49,941 nucleotides of DNA, from the IMG/VR virus record IMGVR_UViG_2529293060_000008. One strand, written 5' to 3'. The position numbers and the translations under genes were made by a program. Source of the stretch: a virus (lineage: Duplodnaviria > Heunggongvirae > Uroviricota > Caudoviricetes). The notes under the pieces were generated by a model. The model made no database searches, was not told the origin of the DNA, and saw only the letters and a list, made by a program, of their open reading frames with translations. Positions 5,677 through 49,330 of the stretch are shown one piece after another (position 1 is the first letter of the stretch; each line of letters starts with the position of its first letter).

Positions 5677-5892
5677 TCACCGTTCCTTAAAGACGCCGTT
5701 CAACATGCCGATCGCCAGGCTTAAATGAGTCGGTGTGAATCCCATCAGCGTTACCGTTTCGCGGTGCTTCTTTAGTACGCTACGGCAAATGTCATCGACG
5801 TTTTTATCCGGAAACTGCTGTCTGGCTTTTTTGATTTCAGAATTAGCCTGACGGGCAATGCTGCGAAGGGCGTTTTCTTGCTGAGGTGTCAT
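5677..5892 (-). CDS. Hypothetical protein
   Basis: ORF in the same operon orientation; start placed at the internal ATG (MTPQQENALRS...); no recognised family. Confidence 0.35.
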   Translation of the reverse strand: MTPQQENALRSIARQANSEIKKARQQFPDKNVDDICRSVLKKHRETVTLMGFTPTHLSLAIGMLNGVFKER

Positions 5893-7779: not shown

Positions 7780-8076
7780 TTATACCTCTGAATCAATATC
7801 AACCTGGTGGTGAGCAATGGTTTCAACCATGTACCGGATGTGTTCTGCCATGCGCTCCTGAAACTCAACATCGTCATCGAACGCACGGGTAATGGCTTTT
7901 TTGCTGACCCCGTGGCGTTGCAAATGATCGATGCATAGCGATTCAAACAGGTGCTGGGGCAGGCCTTTTTCCATGTCGTCTGCCAGTTCTGCCTCTTTCT
8001 CTTCACGGGCGATCTGCTGGTAGTGACGCGCCCAGCTCTGAGCCTCAAGACGATCCTGAATGTAATAAGCGTTCAT
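7780..8076 (-). CDS. gam: Gam (RecBCD inhibitor), short form only
   Basis: 98 aa [61 protein letters not shown]...; an in-frame stop lies 18 codons upstream, so the long isoform is not encoded. Confidence 0.9.
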
Positions 8077-8151
8077 GGCTGAACTCCTGAAAATGGCTGT
8101 GAAAATATCGCCCGCGAAATGCCAGGCTGATTAGGAAAACAGGAAAGGGGG

Positions 8152-8562
8152 TTAGTGATTCAGGCCGTTGCCGCGTCCGTCGAGAAAAACTTCCACGAGC
8201 AAGTCACGGGTATAAGTGCGCTCGATGCCGCGATGCAGATAAAGCCGTCCGCGTAAATTAGCTGATGCAGTCCAGGTACCATCTTTGTGTTTGACCAGCA
8301 TTCCTGGCATGACCGCACCGCGATTAACGGTCTGCGTTCCGTAATGTTGATGAACCATAAAAACTCCTGCCCGTAAGCTGGGCTGCTGAACATATAAAGA
8401 CTTCTGCGCGTATTCAGGCGGTGGATGGCCGCCGGTTGTCATAACTAAGCCGCCTCGTTGAAGCGACTGAGGTATGAAGTGTTGAGTTGATTTCAGCTGG
8501 TCACACCGACGTTCACGCGTCCGCTTCACCCCTCGCACTCCCCGGAGCCTGCTGAAATTCAA
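8152..8562 (-). CDS. Hypothetical early-left protein; Arg-rich N-terminus if the non-ATG start is used (possible N-like antiterminator), alternative ATG start at 8442
   Basis: Track ORF starts at TTG; Arg-rich segment [18 protein letters not shown] resembles an arginine-rich RNA-binding motif; the ATG at 8442 has a GAGG upstream; the rest is not similar to lambda N as I recall it. Confidence 0.3.
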
Positions 8563-8635
8563 GCTGCGGATCTAAGCGGTCATCGCAACGGTGAATCAGG
8601 TGATTGCCGTATCGTTGTGTTGTTGCGACATGGTG

Positions 8636-8690
8636 ACAATAGCTATTGCTATTGATGATATCAATACTTATTGCTATTGCTAGATGTGTT
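8636..8690 (-). promoter_or_regulatory. Candidate OL/pL: operator-like palindromes overlapping a leftward promoter
   Basis: Perfect palindrome CAATAGCTATTG (8636..8647), inverted repeat ATTGAT-gat-ATCAAT, repeated TTGCTATTG; on the minus strand TTGATA-17 nt-TATTGT fits -35/-10; the same 9-mer recurs in the cI-cro intergenic region. Confidence 0.4.
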
Positions 8691-8800
8691 TTGATATTAA
8701 ATATTTGATAGCAAAAAGAATTAATTTTGTGACTTGCATCGCATAGCGATAACTGAAGCGGGGTTGTGGTGGTTTTTTGAACGGTGTGTGTGATGAGGGG

Positions 8801-8831
8801 AGGCAAAAGAAAACCCGGCACGGTGGCCGGG
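8801..8831 (-). terminator. Rho-independent terminator ending the cI-side leftward operon
   Basis: Stem CCCGGC-acggtg-GCCGGG followed on the minus strand by TTTTCTTTTG, a few bases after the stop of the PIN-like gene. Confidence 0.6.
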
Positions 8832-8836
8832 ACGTT

Positions 8837-9349
8837 TTATTTCAAAGAAAAATTATGACTAGCGTATCTTGGAAGAAATTCATATAGTGTTAATGTCTTA
8901 ACGCCGTGAGAAGCAGCAGCATCCGGGATCATTATTCTTTTTTTAGGTTTGCCACCGGATGGTTTCTCATGGGTAATAATAGTATATCCATGTGTCATCG
9001 CATGGGCTATTAAAAAAGCATCTGCTTTTTCATGGCTTGCAAAATCAAACTTTGCCTTTTCGGTAACATCTAATTTAGTTGACCAATTTATTAACTTTGC
9101 ATAATTTTCTATTGAACTATGCTCATCTTCGAAGAATGATGATGGTAACTCTTCTTTAATCCATTTACACAATGGATCATCTTTTGCACATAGTTCTTTT
9201 TTTACAGCATTAATGCTATAAATCAGACCATTAATGTGTAAAGCGAGAAGAAAATCCCAAAATATTTTGCAATAATTGAAGTTATATGCAAAGTTTTTTG
9301 CCTCTATGAAGACATTACTATCAATTAAGAATTTTCCATTATGAATCAT
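8837..9349 (-). CDS. PIN-like nuclease (DUF4411-like), putative toxin or effector
   Basis: 170 aa; N-terminal FLIDSNVFIE and C-terminal DAFLIAHAMTHGYTIITHE resemble PIN-domain motifs; start ATG overlaps the upstream stop (ATGA); visibly AT-rich. Confidence 0.6.
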   Translation of the reverse strand: MIHNGKFLIDSNVFIEAKNFAYNFNYCKIFWDFLLALHINGLIYSINAVKKELCAKDDPLCKWIKEELPSSFFEDEHSSIENYAKLINWSTKLDVTEKAKFDFASHEKADAFLIAHAMTHGYTIITHEKPSGGKPKKRIMIPDAAASHGVKTLTLYEFLPRYASHNFSLK

Positions 9350-10485
9350 AGAGATTCTCGTTTTTTATAAAATTCAACAACTGTATCTGCTTTTACATTT
9401 AGCAGTACGCCTGCTTCCCTTAATGGTAATTGTTGAGACATTGCTTTGGAAATTATTATATTCGTAAGTTTTGGACTGTTACGAACAGGTAATGTGTTAA
9501 AGAAAGAACCACCATTAGATTCTTTTTTGGGCTTATTGTAAGCTTGATCTTTAATTATCTCCAAAGTGTTTCTTTCTATCAAATCTAATTGTAACGCTTT
9601 GATTGCACAAGCGAAATCACTAACCTTAAATAACTTAGAAACCTCTTTTACTCGATAATAATTATTATCGCTGGATGCATTAAGCCAGAAAGATTTGAAG
9701 AGATTATCAGGCATTAAGATTTCAGCAGCAACTTTATTACAAAAAGATTCTATGTTTTTTTCTGTGTCCCACCCAGAGACTCCATCGACTCCAAGCCAAA
9801 GATGAGCCACCTCATGAAATAATGTAAATACCTGCGCAGATAACGCGTCCGAGCTATTTACAAAAATGATCGGAGCAACGCTATCAGATATACAGAAACC
9901 ACGAAACTCTCGCGTGTCAAGTTTTCTTTTATTATTATTACCCACAACACCATTCTTGAAAACTAATACGCCAGTGTCTTCTATTAATTTTGCCACTTTA
10001 GAAAAATAGCTCTCAAAAGTGACATTTTTTATCTCTTTTTGTATATCAAAATGTATTGTGTTTGCTATGTCTGTAGCAACAACCTTATAATTTAATTTTC
10101 TATTAAATTTAAATTTACCAATAAAATCGAGTGGATCATCATTACCATTTTCTCTTAAATAGTCTTTGTACCACTCAAGTTTATATTCTATATCATAGTA
10201 AACATCAAAAAAATCTTTTCCTAACTCACGGCTATTTATAGCTTGCCTTAAGTCAGGGATCTTGGGTTTGGCTGGAGTTGGTGGCGTTTCAAGAAATAAA
10301 AAACCGAAAGGGATTCCTCCAATTTTTGCCAGTTTTTCTGCTGCGGATTTACTTACCACTCCGTTAAGAAATTTATTAATCTTTTTGGGCATGACTTGGT
10401 CAGCAAGAGTTTCGATAGAAACTCCTTGAGAATTTGCTATCCAATCAATCATCTTCCTAGACAATTGAAATTCAACCGCTGCCAT
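9346..10485 (-). CDS. ImmA/IrrE-family Zn-metallopeptidase with N-terminal possible DNA-binding region, putative antitoxin or sensor
   Basis: 379 aa; HExxH in FTLFHEVAHLW followed by ESFCNKVAAEILMP, characteristic of ImmA/IrrE (COG2856) peptidases; AGGTGA Shine-Dalgarno 5 nt before the ATG; AT-rich. Confidence 0.65.
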   Translation of the reverse strand: MAAVEFQLSRKMIDWIANSQGVSIETLADQVMPKKINKFLNGVVSKSAAEKLAKIGGIPFGFLFLETPPTPAKPKIPDLRQAINSRELGKDFFDVYYDIEYKLEWYKDYLRENGNDDPLDFIGKFKFNRKLNYKVVATDIANTIHFDIQKEIKNVTFESYFSKVAKLIEDTGVLVFKNGVVGNNNKRKLDTREFRGFCISDSVAPIIFVNSSDALSAQVFTLFHEVAHLWLGVDGVSGWDTEKNIESFCNKVAAEILMPDNLFKSFWLNASSDNNYYRVKEVSKLFKVSDFACAIKALQLDLIERNTLEIIKDQAYNKPKKESNGGSFFNTLPVRNSPKLTNIIISKAMSQQLPLREAGVLLNVKADTVVEFYKKRESL

Positions 10486-10614
10486 GTTATCACCTAGTTA
10501 AAAAAAACTATTATTCAACAATTATTGTTGTGCACCTGATAGCTAACGTCAAGCCTAATTTATTGCCTTACTACAGTAAGCTGAAAAGCGAAGTGCATAA
10601 TTTTGTTCTGATTT
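10486..10614 (-). promoter_or_regulatory. Intergenic region with candidate promoter and 15-bp near-palindrome CAACAATTATTGTTG (10517..10531)
   Basis: Minus strand shows TTGACG then an AT-rich -10-like segment; inverted repeat CAACAA-tta-TTGTTG could be an autoregulatory operator. Confidence 0.3.
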
Positions 10615-11307
10615 CTACCCATGCTTTCTATATGTCTGCGGCATGCTCCCGATGACTTTCCCGAAGATGAACACGCGGTTCATCTCGTCTTTCTCGATCG
10701 GGTCCCACGGTGAGTAGCTCTTGTTATCAGAGATAACCAGCAGCTTATCCTTCATCATTTGCAGGCGTTTTACATGGGCGGTGTCGTCATACAGAAACGC
10801 ATAGATACCATCACCGTCGAAAGATTTAACCGTGATATCAACGAACAGCAGATCACCTGGTTCGATCGTTCCTGACATGCTGTCACCACGCACGTTAATG
10901 ATGCGGATATTTTCCGCCTTCCTGCCATCGAACATGTGACGAGCATCGTCAAACGAGTATTCAACCGAGCGTAGAACTTCTACAAACTCACGGTTGATTA
11001 CACCCGGCCCGGCACTGACTTCTATATCAAGAACGTCAATTTTGAAGTATTTGGAATGGCTGACAGCAGGCTTCCCTGATTGTTGACCGTCATTTCTCAT
11101 CGGGCCTATGCCTGAAGAGAGCCATTCTGTTCGAACACCCAATGCATTAGCTATTTCAACAATTTTTGTTGAGCCGCGCGCGTTGCCGCTTGTCAGTCTC
11201 CAGATTGTGGGTTGAGCTACGCCAGACGCCTTTGCAAGAGCGCCTTGAGACATTCCAGATTGTTCCATCGCTAGATTTAAGCGATCAGCAAGAGTTTCTT
11301 TTTTCAT
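10615..11307 (-). CDS. cI: CI-like repressor (HTH plus LexA/S24 autopeptidase domain)
   Basis: HTH segment SQGALAKASGVAQPTIWRL; S24 motifs VSAGPG (Ala-Gly cleavage site), GDSM (Ser), VKRL (Lys); ATG at 11307 preceded by TATAAA about 9 nt upstream (near-leaderless); divergent from cro. Confidence 0.85.
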   Translation of the reverse strand: MKKETLADRLNLAMEQSGMSQGALAKASGVAQPTIWRLTSGNARGSTKIVEIANALGVRTEWLSSGIGPMRNDGQQSGKPAVSHSKYFKIDVLDIEVSAGPGVINREFVEVLRSVEYSFDDARHMFDGRKAENIRIINVRGDSMSGTIEPGDLLFVDITVKSFDGDGIYAFLYDDTAHVKRLQMMKDKLLVISDNKSYSPWDPIEKDEMNRVFIFGKVIGSMPQTYRKHG

Positions 11308-11417
11308 AAGTTTTAATTTATACGCTTGCGTATTGATGGTCAAAACACGTTTTGCTATTGCTTGGATTAATACGCATTGCTATTATTCATTCATTGCAAT
11401 ACCAATAGGAATTGATA
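11308..11417. promoter_or_regulatory. Candidate OR with divergent pR / pRM between cI and cro
   Basis: Repeated TTGCTATTG-type motifs (11352.., 11377..); TTGCTT-17 nt-TATTAT on the plus strand upstream of cro; TATAAA on the minus strand upstream of cI; ATTGC...GCAAT inverted repeats. Confidence 0.45.
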
Positions 11418-11645
11418 ATGACAAATCAAACCATTCAACTCGCAATCAGTATTACAGGCAGTCAAAAACGACTGGCAGATCTATGCGGTGTAGCCCAACC
11501 CACAGTTTGGCGTTGGCTACACGGTGGCGGAATTGATGCCCGCTATGTAATGAAAATTGTCTCAGCCACTGGTGGAAAGATTAAACCAGCAGATATTCGT
11601 CCCGACCTCGCACCATTGTTTAACGCGAGTAATTCTGCCGCCTAA
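11418..11645 (+). CDS. cro: Cro-like HTH repressor
   Basis: 75 aa with HTH (SQKRLADLCGVAQPTVWRWLHG); AGGA Shine-Dalgarno 8 nt upstream; divergent from cI. Confidence 0.75.
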   Translation: MTNQTIQLAISITGSQKRLADLCGVAQPTVWRWLHGGGIDARYVMKIVSATGGKIKPADIRPDLAPLFNASNSAA

Positions 11646-11669
11646 ACTGCGGCGTTAACTGATAAGGCA

Positions 11670-12215
11670 ATGACTATGCAACCACTTACATACCAACAGA
11701 CTAGCGGATTTAGCCCGACTGCGGTGATAAATCGTTCTCAAACAAAACAGGTGGCAGGCCACGAAAAAATCCGTGATGCCGTCCGCGCCTGGTCGGCTGT
11801 AGATAATCAGGATGTCGTTGCCACACTCATTGTGAATGAGTATCGGGAGCAGGGCGGCGGCACCATCGATTTCCCTGATGATGTCAGCCGTGCACGCCAG
11901 AAGCTGTTCCGCTTCCTCGATAACAAATTCGATTCTGAAAAATACCGAAATAACGTGCGTGAACTGACCCCGGCAATTCTGGCGGTACTACCGCTGGAAT
12001 ATCGCAGTTACCTGGTTGAGCAGGATAGCTTCATGGCTAGGTTGGCTGAAATGGAAAAGGAACTCAGTGAGGCAAAACAGGCTGTCATTCTCAACGCACC
12101 ACGCCACCAGAAACTGAAGGAAATTAGTGAAGGTATTGTATCGATGTTTCGTGTGGACCCGGATCTGGCTGGTCCATTGATGGCGATGGTTACTACCATG
12201 CTGGGGGCGATATGA
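11670..12215 (+). CDS. YdaT-family protein in the cII position
   Basis: 181 aa; segments NEYREQGGG and LTPAILAVLPLEYR resemble Rac-prophage YdaT as I recall it; sits between cro and O. Confidence 0.45.
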   Translation: MTMQPLTYQQTSGFSPTAVINRSQTKQVAGHEKIRDAVRAWSAVDNQDVVATLIVNEYREQGGGTIDFPDDVSRARQKLFRFLDNKFDSEKYRNNVRELTPAILAVLPLEYRSYLVEQDSFMARLAEMEKELSEAKQAVILNAPRHQKLKEISEGIVSMFRVDPDLAGPLMAMVTTMLGAI

Positions 12216-15067: not shown

Positions 15068-16681
15068 TTATTTATTGGTGAGTACTACGTTCCATGGCAG
15101 GAGTTCATCAACTCGGTTGGAAGGCCATTCCGGCAGTACGCTCAGGATATGGCGCAGATACGCTTCCGGATCGATACCGTTCAGACGGCAGGTGCCGATC
15201 AGCCCGTACAACAGTGCTCCACGCTCGCCGCCGTGATCGCTGCCAAAGAACATAAAGTTTTTCTTTCCGAGACAGACTGCACGAAGCGCTCTTTCCGCAG
15301 CATTATTATCCGCCTCCGCCAGACCGTCATCACTGTAATAACAGAGGGCATCCCACTGATTCAGTACATAGCTGAACGCTTCGCCCAGTCTGGATTTTTT
15401 CGACAGCGTACAATTCTTCTCCACCATCCATTCATGCAGCGACGTCAGTAACACTTTGCTTCGCTGCTGCCTGACGGCAAGACGCTCTGACTCCGGTAAT
15501 CCCCGTATTTCATCCTCGATGGCGTACAGTTCACTGATTCGCTTCAGTGCTTCTTCTGCCGTCGCACTTTTGCTGCTGATGTATACATCGTGGATTTTTC
15601 GCCGGGCATGGGCCCAGCACGCAACTTCTGTCAGTGCACCACCTTCACGTTCTGCACTGAACAACCTGTCGTAACCTGTGAACGCATCCGCCTGCAGGAT
15701 ACCCCGGAAGGGGCGGAGGTGTTGCTCCGGGTGTTTCCCCTGCCGGTTCGGCGAGTACGCGAACCAGACCGCTGGAGGAGATGACGAACCCACATTGCGA
15801 TCATCCCGGACATACGTCCAGATACGCCCTGTTTTCGCCTTTTTCTGACCCGGTGCCAGTACCTTTACCGGTGTGTCATCAGTGTGAATCTTGCGGGTGT
15901 TCATTACATAACGGTACAGGGCATCATTCACCGGTGTCATTAACTGGCAGCACGCGTCAACCCAGTTGGAGAGTAAGGCCCGGCTCAGTTCGACACCCTG
16001 GCGGGCAAAGATTTCACTCTGACGATACAGTGGCAGATGTTCGCAGTATTTTCCCGTTAACACGCGGGCAAGTAATCCGGGGCCCGCGATACCACGCTCT
16101 ATCGGGCGGGACGGCGCCGGTGCTTCAACAATACAGTCACATTTTGTACAGGCTTTTTTTACCCGTTCTGTGCGGATCACTTTCAGGGCACTGCTCACCA
16201 GTTCCAGCTGTTCAGCGCTGACTTCCCCCAGATAATCCAGCTCACCGCCACACTCCGGGCAACAGCTTTCTTCTGGCTCCAGGCGGTGTATTTCACGGGG
16301 AAGGTGTGCCGGTAACGGACGACGATGGCGCGACTGTCGCAACTGGCGGGGAACCTGAGGATCGTCTTCCCGCCCACTGTAACGATCGCTGTCCTGTTCA
16401 CGTTGTTTCAGCAGAGCCTCAGCCAGTTCAACTTCACGACGCAGTTTTTCAGAACGGGTACCGAACAGCATCCGGCGCAGTTTTTCTATCTGAGCCCGCA
16501 GATGTTCTATTTCCCGTTCATCTTCTTCGATCTTTTCTTCGGCACGTGTCAGTGCAGAGCGCAGGAAGGCTTCCGTCTCTTCAACCAGACTCAGTTGCTG
16601 GTCTTTCTGACGGAGGGCTTCAGCCTGCTCAGAGAGCAACCTTTCCAGCTCTGCGATGCGAATGAGGTATTTCTGACTCAT
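15068..16681 (-). CDS. tnpC: IS66-family transposase (TnpC)
   Basis: 537 aa with N-terminal coiled coil and Cys-rich segment (CCPECGGEL...CTKCDC), typical of IS66 transposases. Confidence 0.8.
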   Translation of the reverse strand: MSQKYLIRIAELERLLSEQAEALRQKDQQLSLVEETEAFLRSALTRAEEKIEEDEREIEHLRAQIEKLRRMLFGTRSEKLRREVELAEALLKQREQDSDRYSGREDDPQVPRQLRQSRHRRPLPAHLPREIHRLEPEESCCPECGGELDYLGEVSAEQLELVSSALKVIRTERVKKACTKCDCIVEAPAPSRPIERGIAGPGLLARVLTGKYCEHLPLYRQSEIFARQGVELSRALLSNWVDACCQLMTPVNDALYRYVMNTRKIHTDDTPVKVLAPGQKKAKTGRIWTYVRDDRNVGSSSPPAVWFAYSPNRQGKHPEQHLRPFRGILQADAFTGYDRLFSAEREGGALTEVACWAHARRKIHDVYISSKSATAEEALKRISELYAIEDEIRGLPESERLAVRQQRSKVLLTSLHEWMVEKNCTLSKKSRLGEAFSYVLNQWDALCYYSDDGLAEADNNAAERALRAVCLGKKNFMFFGSDHGGERGALLYGLIGTCRLNGIDPEAYLRHILSVLPEWPSNRVDELLPWNVVLTNK

Positions 16682-20791: not shown

Positions 20792-21889
20792 TTAGAACTG
20801 GTAAACCAGACCTACAGCAACGATGTCATCAGTGCTTACACCGAGTGCTTTAGTGAAGTCATTTTTGTCAAGCAGGTTGATTTTGTAATCAACGAAAGTA
20901 GACATATTTTTGTTGAAGTAATAGGTTGCACCTACATCAACATATTTGACTAAGTCCTGATCGCCCCATACTCCAAGATCCTTACCTTTAGATTGCAGGT
21001 AAGCAACGGACGGACGCAGACCGAAATCGAACTGATATTGTGCAACAGCTTCGAAGTTTTGGGCTTTATTAGCAACGAAGTGATCAGCAAATACAGTCAT
21101 ATTCTGGGTTTCAGAATAGGTAGTGGCCAGGTAAATGTTGTTAGCGTCATATTTCAGACCTGCGGCCCAAACTTCTGCATTTTTACCGGAAGCAAATACT
21201 TCAGGAAGAACTTTCCCTGCATTAACTTGAGTGTCGGTACGATCAGATTTTGCATAAGTTGCACCGATACCGAATCCTTCGTATTCATAGGTAGCAGAGA
21301 AACCGAAGCCATCACCGTTACCTTCGGTGTAGTTATCGAAATCGCTACGATCGTTTTTGCCTTGGTACTGAGCAGCAAAGTTCAGACCATCAACCAGGCC
21401 AAAGAAGTCGTTGTTACGATAGGTTGCAACACCAGTGGTGCGACCAGTCATGAACACATCTGTTTGGGTCCAGGTATCGCCACCGAATTCTGGCAGAACG
21501 TCAGTCCACGCACCGATGTCGTATGCTACACCGTAGTTACGGCCGTAATCGATTGAGCCGTAGTCACCGAATTTCAGGCCTGCAAATGCAAGACGGGTTT
21601 TGTCTTTGGAGGAACCTTGAGATTCAGCGCGGTTGCCTTTGAATTCATATTCCCACTGACCGAAACCAGTCAGTTGATCGTTGATTTGGGTTTCACCTTT
21701 GAAGCCAAGACGGGCATAAGTAGTATCACCATCATCTGCATCATTAGAGGAGAAGTAGTGCTTAGCATTAACTTTCCCGTACAGATCCAGCTTGTTACTG
21801 TCTTTATTATAAATTTCAGCTGCCTGAGCAGACATCGCCATCAGTACTGATGCAGCTACAGCAGAAATTGCCACTGTTAATTTTTTCAT
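20792..21889 (-). CDS. nmpC: Outer-membrane general porin (NmpC / Lc / OmpC family), lysogenic-conversion gene
   Basis: 365 aa with signal peptide ([23 protein letters not shown]), AEIYNKD...GKVNAKHYF start and C-terminal ...VGLVYQF, typical of enterobacterial porins; antisense to the late operon as nmpC is in DLP12. Confidence 0.85.
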
Positions 21890-25464: not shown

Positions 25465-29145
<3,681 letters not shown>

Positions 29146-29165
<20 letters not shown>

Positions 29166-48621: not shown

Positions 48622-48670
48622 CCGCAGCACGTCTTAAGCAAGAACGTGCTGCGGTTAGATGCTATTTTTT
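48622..48670 (+). terminator. Stem-loop plus T-run after tfa
   Basis: CCGCAGCACGT-cttaagcaagA-ACGTGCTGCGG followed a few bases later by TATTTTTT; the same hairpin recurs at about 49670..49700. Confidence 0.45.
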
Positions 48671-49330
48671 CCCTGAAGCGGAAAACATTACTACAGTACC
48701 TTGAACCTTGGTTTTAACATTCTCGAAATGCTCTGAGAGTATATGTGTTAAGCCTTCTTCGGAATCTTTTGTGTTTGAAAAGATGCCTTTCTGATTGTAA
48801 ATGCGCATCAGTTTTTGACCGAAGCTATTGTGCACAACTCCATCGCCAAGAATTGTGGCTCCGTATAGAGTTCCATCGTCAGTTAAGGCCTGCGCCGCAT
48901 TGCGTATTACACAGCTTTTTGTAGATATATTTCCAGGCAGGCAGTGAAGAAGGTAAAACATGGAAATGGAATCAAATTGACCATGTAACGCCGCGGGATA
49001 AGGTTCAAAAACATCATGGCTAATTTTATGTTTAATTTTTGATTCCCCAGCCCTTGTAGATGCCGCGTTCAGGCTAGCTTCGTTCAAATCCATTAAAGAT
49101 ATCAGACTACTCTCAGGTACGTGAGTAAGGTAAAACCCAGTTCCAACACCAATATCCAGATGGTTGTTACCTACATGTTCCAGAAAGTGTGGAAGAAGGT
49201 GTTCCTTTGTAGGACATCCCCATGCAAGCCGATTTGATACTCCCAAAACCCACCAGTCATAAAGCTTTAGGGTAAGTGGTGTGTAAATTTTAGCCCCATC
49301 ATCTGTGTTTTTTTTCATTGATTTCACCAT
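48662..49330 (-). CDS. Class I SAM-dependent methyltransferase (substrate unknown)
   Basis: 222 aa with motif I LDIGVGTGFY; opposite strand to the tail fibre genes; flanked by duplicated tfa 3' ends. Confidence 0.6.
   Translation of the reverse strand: MVKSMKKNTDDGAKIYTPLTLKLYDWWVLGVSNRLAWGCPTKEHLLPHFLEHVGNNHLDIGVGTGFYLTHVPESSLISLMDLNEASLNAASTRAGESKIKHKISHDVFEPYPAALHGQFDSISMFYLLHCLPGNISTKSCVIRNAAQALTDDGTLYGATILGDGVVHNSFGQKLMRIYNQKGIFSNTKDSEEGLTHILSEHFENVKTKVQGTVVMFSASGKK

Follow-up and report, generated by a model that had tools for sequence, protein, structure and literature searches.

The stretch of DNA analyzed here (IMG/VR record IMGVR_UViG_2529293060_000008; 49,941 nucleotides, hereafter the window) is an Escherichia coli lambdoid prophage integrated beside ybhC. 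Next to its cI-type repressor gene it carries a cassette of two genes, one encoding a 379-amino-acid (aa) protein with helix-turn-helix (HTH) and M78 peptidase domains and the other a 170-aa PIN-like nuclease of the DUF4411 family. We propose that this cassette is a self-contained, two-gene type II toxin-antitoxin (TA) module of the VapBC52 type that the prophage holds as exchangeable cargo, and we give this explanation as a whole a probability of about 0.62. The TA architecture is well supported and the TA assignment is made with high confidence; the cassette probably also has an anti-phage function, which we hold with less confidence than the TA assignment. Gene structure, homology, conserved motifs, strict pairing, position and the exchange of cargo in the slot were all established in the analysis.

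The cassette and its boundaries

Both genes lie on the minus strand, the antitoxin or sensor gene at 9346..10485 and the toxin gene at 8837..9349. An earlier note on this DNA had described two overlapping genes between the repressor and the leftward operators and promoter (OL/pL), and both open reading frames (ORFs) are indeed seen there, with the stop and start codons sharing the ATGA at 9346..9349 when the sequence is read directly (...tct cta TGA / ATG att cat...). The motifs quoted in that note (FHEVAHLW, ESFCNKVAAEILMP, FLIDSNVFIE and DAFLIAHAMTHGYTIITHE) are all found in the window proteins, and the block is as AT-rich as had been claimed, with a GC content of 0.29-0.37 over 8800-10400 against approximately 0.47-0.53 in the flanks on both sides. 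The minus-strand terminator reported at the end of the cassette is likewise recognizable as a stem at 8831..8814 with six G-C pairs, followed by TTTTCTTTTG; in a terminator scan this hairpin starts five bases past the toxin stop codon. Taken together, the scan and backbone homology place the intrinsic terminator of the cI-cassette transcription unit at 8804..8831 on the minus strand. Because homology to other lambdoid phages spans 8600-8832, hairpin included, the sequence comparison indicates that this terminator is phage backbone and not cargo.

On the other side of the cassette, the cI-type repressor gene (10615..11343, minus strand; RefSeq start 11307) encodes HTH_3 and Peptidase_S24 domains. 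Operator sites resembling ATTGCTATTGCT occur 12 times in the whole 50-kb window. Three of them, at 8639-8681, fall within the candidate OL operators and pL (8636..8681, minus strand), which include a promoter-like TTGATA-17-TATTGT at 8664..8636, and four, lying between cI and the cro-like gene, make up the candidate OR operators (11351..11412). In lambda, rexAB lies between cI and OL/pL. Since the operator clusters and the pL-like site flank the cassette and cI, the cassette occupies the equivalent interval, with OL/pL to its left and the repressor to its right, and the previous assignment to the rexAB slot holds.

The DUF4411 toxin

The 170-aa protein matches Pfam DUF4411 (PF14367) over residues 7-161 of 170 (E 1.2e-37). 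Residues D10, E52, D110 and E128 are invariant across 33 homologues (alignment A1) and, as judged from the alignment, are the acidic quartet expected for a PIN nuclease. When an AlphaFold2 (AF2) model of the toxin (pLDDT 90) was submitted to Foldseek, ranks 1-11 were all VapC toxins or VapBC complexes, and the remainder were mostly other PIN-domain proteins. The DUF4411 match, the four invariant acidic residues and the VapC-like predicted fold bear out the PIN-like character that had been suggested from motifs alone. A profile search of 1.84 billion cluster representatives returned 5,412 relatives of the toxin, and full-length PHROG matches were obtained for the two window proteins (phrog_2439, 3e-76; phrog_11126, 1e-67); NCBIfam gave no match to the toxin.

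The HTH/M78 peptidase antitoxin

The 379-aa protein matches Pfam Peptidase_M78 (PF06114) over residues 169-291 (E 1.2e-13), in agreement with the earlier view of it as an ImmA/IrrE-type peptidase. Its AF2 model (pLDDT 89) comprises a five-helix, HTH-like N-terminal domain (about residues 1-65), a mixed alpha/beta peptidase, a four-helix HTH-like sub-domain following the peptidase, and a four-helix C-terminal domain (about 328-378). Family alignments locate a linker motif at D78-L79-R80 (DNA 10246..10254) and, in the M78 zinc peptidase, HEVAH at 224-228 (DNA 9802..9816) together with E246, C249 and N250; among 31 antitoxin homologues (alignment A2), D78, R80, H224, E225, H228, E246, C249 and N250 are included in the invariant set.

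The best Foldseek structures for the antitoxin were CapP (7T5T), IrrE (3DTI and 3DTE) and PprI with single-stranded DNA (ssDNA; 8SLN). Among PADLOC models capP (E 1e-14) scored higher than the RmrA models, and the only NCBIfam match, spr1629, was far under the cutoff. Filing the cassette under a named PADLOC or NCBIfam defense system was ruled out, the toxin being unmatched and the antitoxin matches weak or generic.

Relationship to VapBC52

In a search of PDB sequences, both window proteins match the same entry best, 9VZY, which holds VapB52/VapC52 of Mycobacterium tuberculosis, with single-sequence E-values of 8e-7 and 7e-6. With family profiles the matches reach E 1.6e-22 for the antitoxin against VapB52 (9vzy_A; profile positions 10-334 of 378 to residues 4-346) and E 1.2e-13 for the toxin against VapC52 (9vzy_D). 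The Foldseek PDB library predates 9VZY and 9VZZ, such that the structural searches show generic VapC and CapP/IrrE folds only, and the placement in the VapBC52 family rests on sequence profiles for this reason. The secondary structure predicted by AF2 for the antitoxin agrees with the published domain description of VapB52.

In M. tuberculosis, VapC52 is a DUF4411 PIN toxin that cuts tRNA anticodon or variable loops, and VapB52, a three-domain antitoxin of unusual size, binds the toxin dimer in a 1:2 ratio, its N-terminal domain being required for toxin binding and its C-terminal domain occluding the toxin active site (PMC13273310). The trigger is ssDNA, which switches on the M78 peptidase of VapB52 and leads to HExxH-dependent self-cleavage near a conserved FR motif where the N-terminal and middle domains join, taking off the N-terminal domain needed for toxin binding; in the inactive state the zinc is capped by C229 (PMC13273310). 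The toxicity of Rv2514c and its rescue by Rv2515c have also been reported (PMC6504116).

Several of these functional elements can be traced in the cassette. H224, E225, H228 and E246 of the antitoxin align to the H216/H220/E245 zinc site of VapB52, and IPDLRQ in the window protein (containing D78, L79 and R80) is aligned to LRDFRR in VapB52. Across 75 homologues the junction motif reads D-x-R, where x is F (56 sequences), L (16) or M (2), and the next residue is R in 74 of the 75. The canonical VapB is a small protein (~8-13 kDa) of the RHH, AbrB or Phd type, whereas the partner here is a 379-aa M78 peptidase protein. The earlier note had assigned the peptidase the role of sensor or antitoxin and the PIN protein that of effector, a division of labor that agrees, as far as homology carries, with the experiments on VapBC52 as the closest characterized relative (PMC13273310). 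Its statement that the pair could not be placed in a characterized system has been superseded: the cassette belongs to the characterized VapBC52 TA family, a module predicted in 2009 and again in 2017.

Expression signals

A consensus scan identifies a sigma-70-like promoter of the cassette's own at 10524..10552 on the minus strand, with TTGACG at 10552..10547, a 17-nt spacer and AACAAT at 10529..10524. TTGAC and a -10-like CAA.A.T block recur at equal spacing upstream of six divergent cassettes from four kinds of context (alignment A3), and we infer that TTGACG-17-AACAAT acts as the cassette promoter. Overlapping the -10 element, a perfect palindrome, CAACAATAATTGTTG, can be read at 10516..10530; an akin ACAAT..ATTGT repeat is present in the Trabulsiella cassette and is weaker in other cassettes (alignment A3). 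By analogy with type II TA autoregulation, it is plausible that this palindrome, which is only partly conserved, is an autoregulatory operator for the HTH domain of the antitoxin. Because the terminator scan predicted no terminator between cI and the cassette, read-through from cI is also possible.

A strictly paired, mobile two-gene unit

When one genome per species was scanned, relatives turned up at no fewer than 461 loci, of which 80 were fetched and 79 could be tested, the other locus being without upstream DNA. In all 79 cases the gene of a full-length antitoxin homologue runs up to or into the toxin start on the same strand, and the fetched loci come from Proteobacteria, Actinobacteria, Chloroflexi, Spirochaetes, Acidobacteria, Planctomycetes, Bacteroidetes and Cyanobacteria. 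The same pairing is found in IMG/VR, where 87 contigs encode a relative and the gene pair is kept in every testable case (78/78). Clustering of the ORFs flanking the 79 loci revealed no universal third gene, with no flanking gene in more than about a third. The sole recurrent neighbors are type I restriction-modification (R-M) genes, with HsdM/HsdS and HsdR confirmed by Pfam, which adjoin the pair at 27 of the 79 loci and at 19 of the 45 with full flanks. At 14 loci the pair stands in line between hsdM and hsdR; these hsdM/hsdS-pair-hsdR arrangements belong to unrelated bacteria (loci L011, L025, L032, L034, L040, L049, L057, L062, L067, L070, L071, L074 and L081, and the more distant L058).

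The genetic contexts are otherwise varied. The distinct upstream neighbors on viral contigs include HTH and Peptidase_S24 repressors in 22 of 47 cases, with 13-38% identity to the window cI. In Rac-like prophages of Klebsiella and Enterobacter the cassette follows a different repressor that lacks S24, while contigs with P0066, a protein named by NCBI for Trabulsiella, have the cassette beside dinI and the tail-fiber invertase of a Mu/P2-like prophage. Twenty-five plasmids, among them many large conjugative replicons, also carry relatives. In 50,697 phage records, a tblastn search with the toxin gave a single match, metagenomic and 27% identical, and a megablast search recovered only the backbone at 8600-8832, which leaves no isolated phage to use as a reference. 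The constancy of the pair across these settings indicates that it is an autonomous, mobile two-gene unit.

In the contig collection, 287 blocks list the antitoxin sequence from Klebsiella, and by this count the cassette is far commoner in Klebsiella than in E. coli. In the Klebsiella Rac-like prophages (L085-L088) a 32-aa YoaK-family ORF lies between repressor and cassette (5728..5826).

An exchangeable cargo slot beside the repressor

The cassette region (8600-10700) is 100% identical to that of STEC316 and 99.9% identical to that of IAI1. Among 5,426 complete E. coli genomes the complete cassette is present in 33, and the same cI/OR region in 719 (at least 80% coverage, mostly at least 95% identity). 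Seven sibling prophages sampled from these 719 genomes (L082-L084 and L174-L177), with cI at least 95% identical, carry seven other cargos between cI and kil, all in the orientation of cI. One is a SIR2 protein matching the PADLOC candidate PDC-S25, and another consists of an ASCH protein and a 353-aa protein matching the candidate PDC-M11A/B; the others are DUF6414 with a small ORF, DUF6932 with a hypothetical protein, a HipA-family kinase with DUF3037, and two further pairs of hypothetical proteins. Since lambdoid backbone homology covers 8600-8832 and then restarts at the cI stop codon, the exchangeable block spans approximately 8833..10614. Between the cI stop codon and the backbone terminator this lineage thus has a site of cargo exchange, with eight prophages holding eight cassettes, mostly of two genes.

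Proposed mechanism

We infer toxicity, neutralization, trigger, RNA target and phage protection from the M. tuberculosis homologue and from context, and these combine into the following model. The lysogen would transcribe the cassette from its own conserved promoter, and probably also through cI read-through. The DUF4411 PIN protein would be a Mg-dependent RNase, most likely a nuclease of tRNA loops, and the 379-aa partner would bind it and keep it inactive, its N-terminal HTH-like and C-terminal helical domains clamping the toxin. The central M78 zinc peptidase would act as the sensor and, once triggered, cut its own chain at the D-[F/L]-R linker, so that the antitoxin would lose its neutralizing N-terminal domain and free the toxin. 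Translation would then halt and the infected cell would arrest or die, such that a superinfecting phage would fail to spread (abortive infection). In the relatives VapB52, CapP and IrrE/PprI the trigger is ssDNA; in the cassette it is uncertain, because the cysteine switch is missing. In this way the cassette may protect the lysogen from superinfection, a reading consistent with the R-M adjacency in the wider family, the repressor-proximal position, and the exchange of cargo with two PADLOC candidates.

A number of observations weigh against this model or its individual parts. Identity to VapBC52 is low, the single-sequence matches span only part of each protein, and the antitoxin profile match to VapB52 ends ahead of the C-terminal domain, which resembles that of VapB52 in helix count and not in sequence. 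The equivalent of the VapB52 "cysteine switch" residue C229 is S237 in the antitoxin, and this position is Ser in 71 of 75 family members and Cys in none of the 75. No PADLOC family matched the 170-aa toxin at an E of 0.1 or better, a close homologue is absent from all isolated phages among the 50,697 phage records, and full-text literature searches found no experimental work on an enterobacterial member. Moreover, the defense evidence for VapBC52 itself is weak, since over-expressed toxin alone protected against phage and the co-expressed pair did not (PMC13273310). Finally, were ssDNA the trigger, SOS induction of the prophage itself would be expected to fire the toxin too. Because the residue of the VapB52/CapP cysteine switch is Ser in this antitoxin, activation in the Ser-carrying family may differ from that of VapB52, and on the sequences compared the cysteine switch looks like a peculiarity of VapB52 and CapP, as opposed to a trait of the DUF4411-linked family.

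Alternative explanations

The main rival is that the cassette is a plain addiction or stabilization module, which penalizes loss of the prophage or of the cassette by post-segregational killing and offers no phage protection. We regard this as a minor but real possibility. A bona fide TA architecture, copies on conjugative plasmids, the movement of a selfish two-gene unit among unrelated contexts, and the weakness of the VapBC52 defense evidence are all what such a module would lead one to expect. Conversely, the pair is found repeatedly within type I R-M operons, the repressor-proximal slot holds SIR2 and other PADLOC candidates in sibling prophages, and simple addiction needs no peptidase sensor with a conserved self-cleavage motif.

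Rather more doubtful is a variant that takes the serine substitution as its starting point. Here the Ser-for-Cys clade, comprising the cassette and nearly all DUF4411-linked antitoxins, would be a PrrC-like guard instead of an ssDNA sensor: the protease-antitoxin would monitor a phage insult, such as inhibition of an associated type I R-M enzyme or a phage protein engaging the HTH domain, and respond through self-cleavage and anticodon-loop cutting. If this were true, the prophage copy would amount to a portable second-line defense capable of distinguishing a superinfecting phage from induction of the prophage itself.

It is improbable that the cassette instead serves the prophage through a DNA-damage-coupled shut-off of the host, in which the signals for prophage induction (ssDNA or SOS) would set the RNase free as well, and the RNase would reshape translation while induction proceeds, with incoming phages not being targeted. 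The M78 relatives IrrE/PprI, CapP and VapB52 do respond to DNA damage or ssDNA, and the cassette sits in an immunity region beside an SOS-cleavable S24 repressor. However, sibling prophages with the same cI and early genes do without the cassette, most family members lie outside prophages, and the Cys switch tied to ssDNA activation is absent, leaving this explanation unsupported.

An anti-repressor of the ImmA/ImmR type, in which the M78 peptidase cuts the neighboring repressor to bring about induction and DUF4411 is an accessory nuclease, was rejected as the main explanation and is very unlikely: although the ICEBs1 ImmA is the founding member of the peptidase family and is encoded beside its substrate repressor (PMC2701414, PMC10440598), and the cassette follows a repressor gene in many prophages, some of whose repressors have no S24 domain, the window cI carries an S24 autoprotease domain of its own, all seven sampled siblings have this cI but not the cassette (and the cI region in 719 genomes against the cassette in 33), the peptidase has its own HTH domain and cleavage motif in cis, and the DUF4411 pairing is universal, even in R-M operons with no phage repressor nearby.

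Other features of the prophage

Between kil (8152..8358) and the cassette (window 8359..8836), neither the annotation nor the sequence points to an N-like antiterminator or a cIII gene; an HK022-style put RNA is a possible candidate for antitermination of the early-left transcript. An untranslated leader of approximately 200 nt follows the candidate pL (8636-8664), and an Rfam search over 8000-11600 gave nothing credible, the untranslated stretch between kil and the cassette being without a known RNA family. To the right of the operators, the first genes of the early-right operon (11412..12215) encode a 77-aa YdaS-like HTH protein and a 181-aa protein with a YdaT_toxin domain; because these hold the cro and cII positions, the immunity region is Rac-like as opposed to lambda-like.

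Farther along, an IS66-family transposase gene (537 aa; 15068..16681, minus strand) is inserted in the nin region; it is missing from the STEC316 and IAI1 prophages, which are otherwise almost the same and have a DUF4145 gene near that position. Two likely morons were also noted, a gene for an outer-membrane porin (Porin_1) that lies between Q and the lysis genes (20792..21889, minus strand) and, past the tail-fiber genes and on the opposite strand, a 222-aa ORF resembling SAM methyltransferases (48662..49330, minus strand). In STEC316 the portal gene is truncated by a satellite-like, integrase-bearing element with Icd-like and BRO-N genes (L173, 37296..39567). The portal of the window is intact (a 533-aa ORF at 27564..29165), and the window is therefore a different, apparently complete prophage copy.

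Significance

The cassette is a member of a TA family that has already been predicted and once characterized, and is not a new system. What is newly described is of modest novelty: a cleanly bounded copy with its own promoter at the rex position of an enterobacterial prophage, a DUF4411-linked family that at large is without the cysteine switch, and a hypervariable repressor-proximal slot. The family has been predicted since 2009, and one distant member, that of M. tuberculosis, has been studied, with weak anti-phage evidence. An E. coli copy in a tractable lambdoid prophage, with a native promoter and a 1.8-kb boundary, makes toxicity and rescue, the self-cleavage trigger of a clade lacking the cysteine switch, the RNA target and protection testable on standard coliphage panels. 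Looking forward, further candidate defense genes could be sought at little cost in the cI-to-OL interval of this lineage.

Comparison with known systems

The architecture of the cassette, a fused HTH-DUF955 gene followed by DUF4411, is that of a three-component TA module predicted in 2009 and 2017. The combination of HTH-COG2856/DUF955 with PIN/DUF4411 was put forward as a TA module by Makarova (2009, PMC2701414) and Matelska (2017, PMC5499597, subfamily DUF4411.1), and was noted to occur frequently in phages and prophages and close to R-M genes. These papers give predictions only, and neither the repressor-proximal prophage slot nor the conserved promoter is described there. ImmA-type antitoxins were linked again to PIN-like toxins in 2023, when the NetFlax ImmA node was seen to pair with PIN-like domains (PMC10440598).

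RosmerTA (RmrT/RmrA; Millman 2022, Ernits 2023), offered earlier as an example of this kind of module, similarly pairs an ImmA-like zinc-peptidase and HTH antitoxin with a toxin, and has proven anti-phage activity as its own feature. By the available models, however, the cassette is not RosmerTA: 11 RmrA models match the antitoxin weakly (E 6e-8 to 8e-4, 17-30 bits), chiefly over the peptidase core, no RmrT model in PADLOC matches the 170-aa toxin, and known RmrT toxins are unrelated to PIN, one example depolarizing the membrane.

The closest structural matches of the peptidase module come from CapP/CapH of CBASS (7T5T) and from IrrE/PprI-DdrO (3DTI, 8SLN), where M78 peptidases activated by ssDNA or DNA damage cut an HTH protein. 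CapP and IrrE/PprI cut a separate repressor and thereby turn transcription on, whereas in the cassette the substrate domain is fused in cis and the proposed output is toxin release. No CBASS, CapH partner or DNA-repair genes flank the cassette, and the likeness to CapP is limited to the peptidase fold.

In its position, the cassette resembles two known abortive-infection systems carried as cargo beside a repressor gene, rexAB of lambda and BstA of Salmonella phage BTP1, whose gene reportedly lies downstream of the repressor locus. The likeness is positional and functional only, with no sequence or domain relation found; scans of the window proteins with Pfam, PHROG and PADLOC detected no Rex family, and map position alone is common to the cassette and rexAB.

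The prrC gene sits within type I R-M loci, between hsdM/S and hsdR. PrrC/RloC are echoed in the wider family by the 14 of 79 loci with the pair in line between hsdM/S and hsdR, and by the cutting of tRNA anticodon loops by VapC52. Their nuclease fold is unrelated, latency in the cassette would be imposed by a dedicated protease-antitoxin and not by the R-M enzyme, and the window copy, unlike PrrC/RloC, adjoins no R-M genes.

The nearest comparison remains VapBC52 of M. tuberculosis (Rv2515c/Rv2514c; PDB 9VZY and 9VZZ). The two are distant relatives, such that a family profile is needed for full-length alignment, and their hosts differ, VapBC52 being encoded on a mycobacterial chromosome and the cassette, known here from sequence only, in a Gram-negative lambdoid prophage. 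In both, a DUF4411 PIN toxin is encoded directly downstream of an antitoxin of approximately 380-415 aa, which begins with an HTH domain, continues with an M78 zinc peptidase that includes an HTH sub-domain, and ends in a helical domain, and both have the HExxH..E zinc site and the D-F/L-R junction motif.

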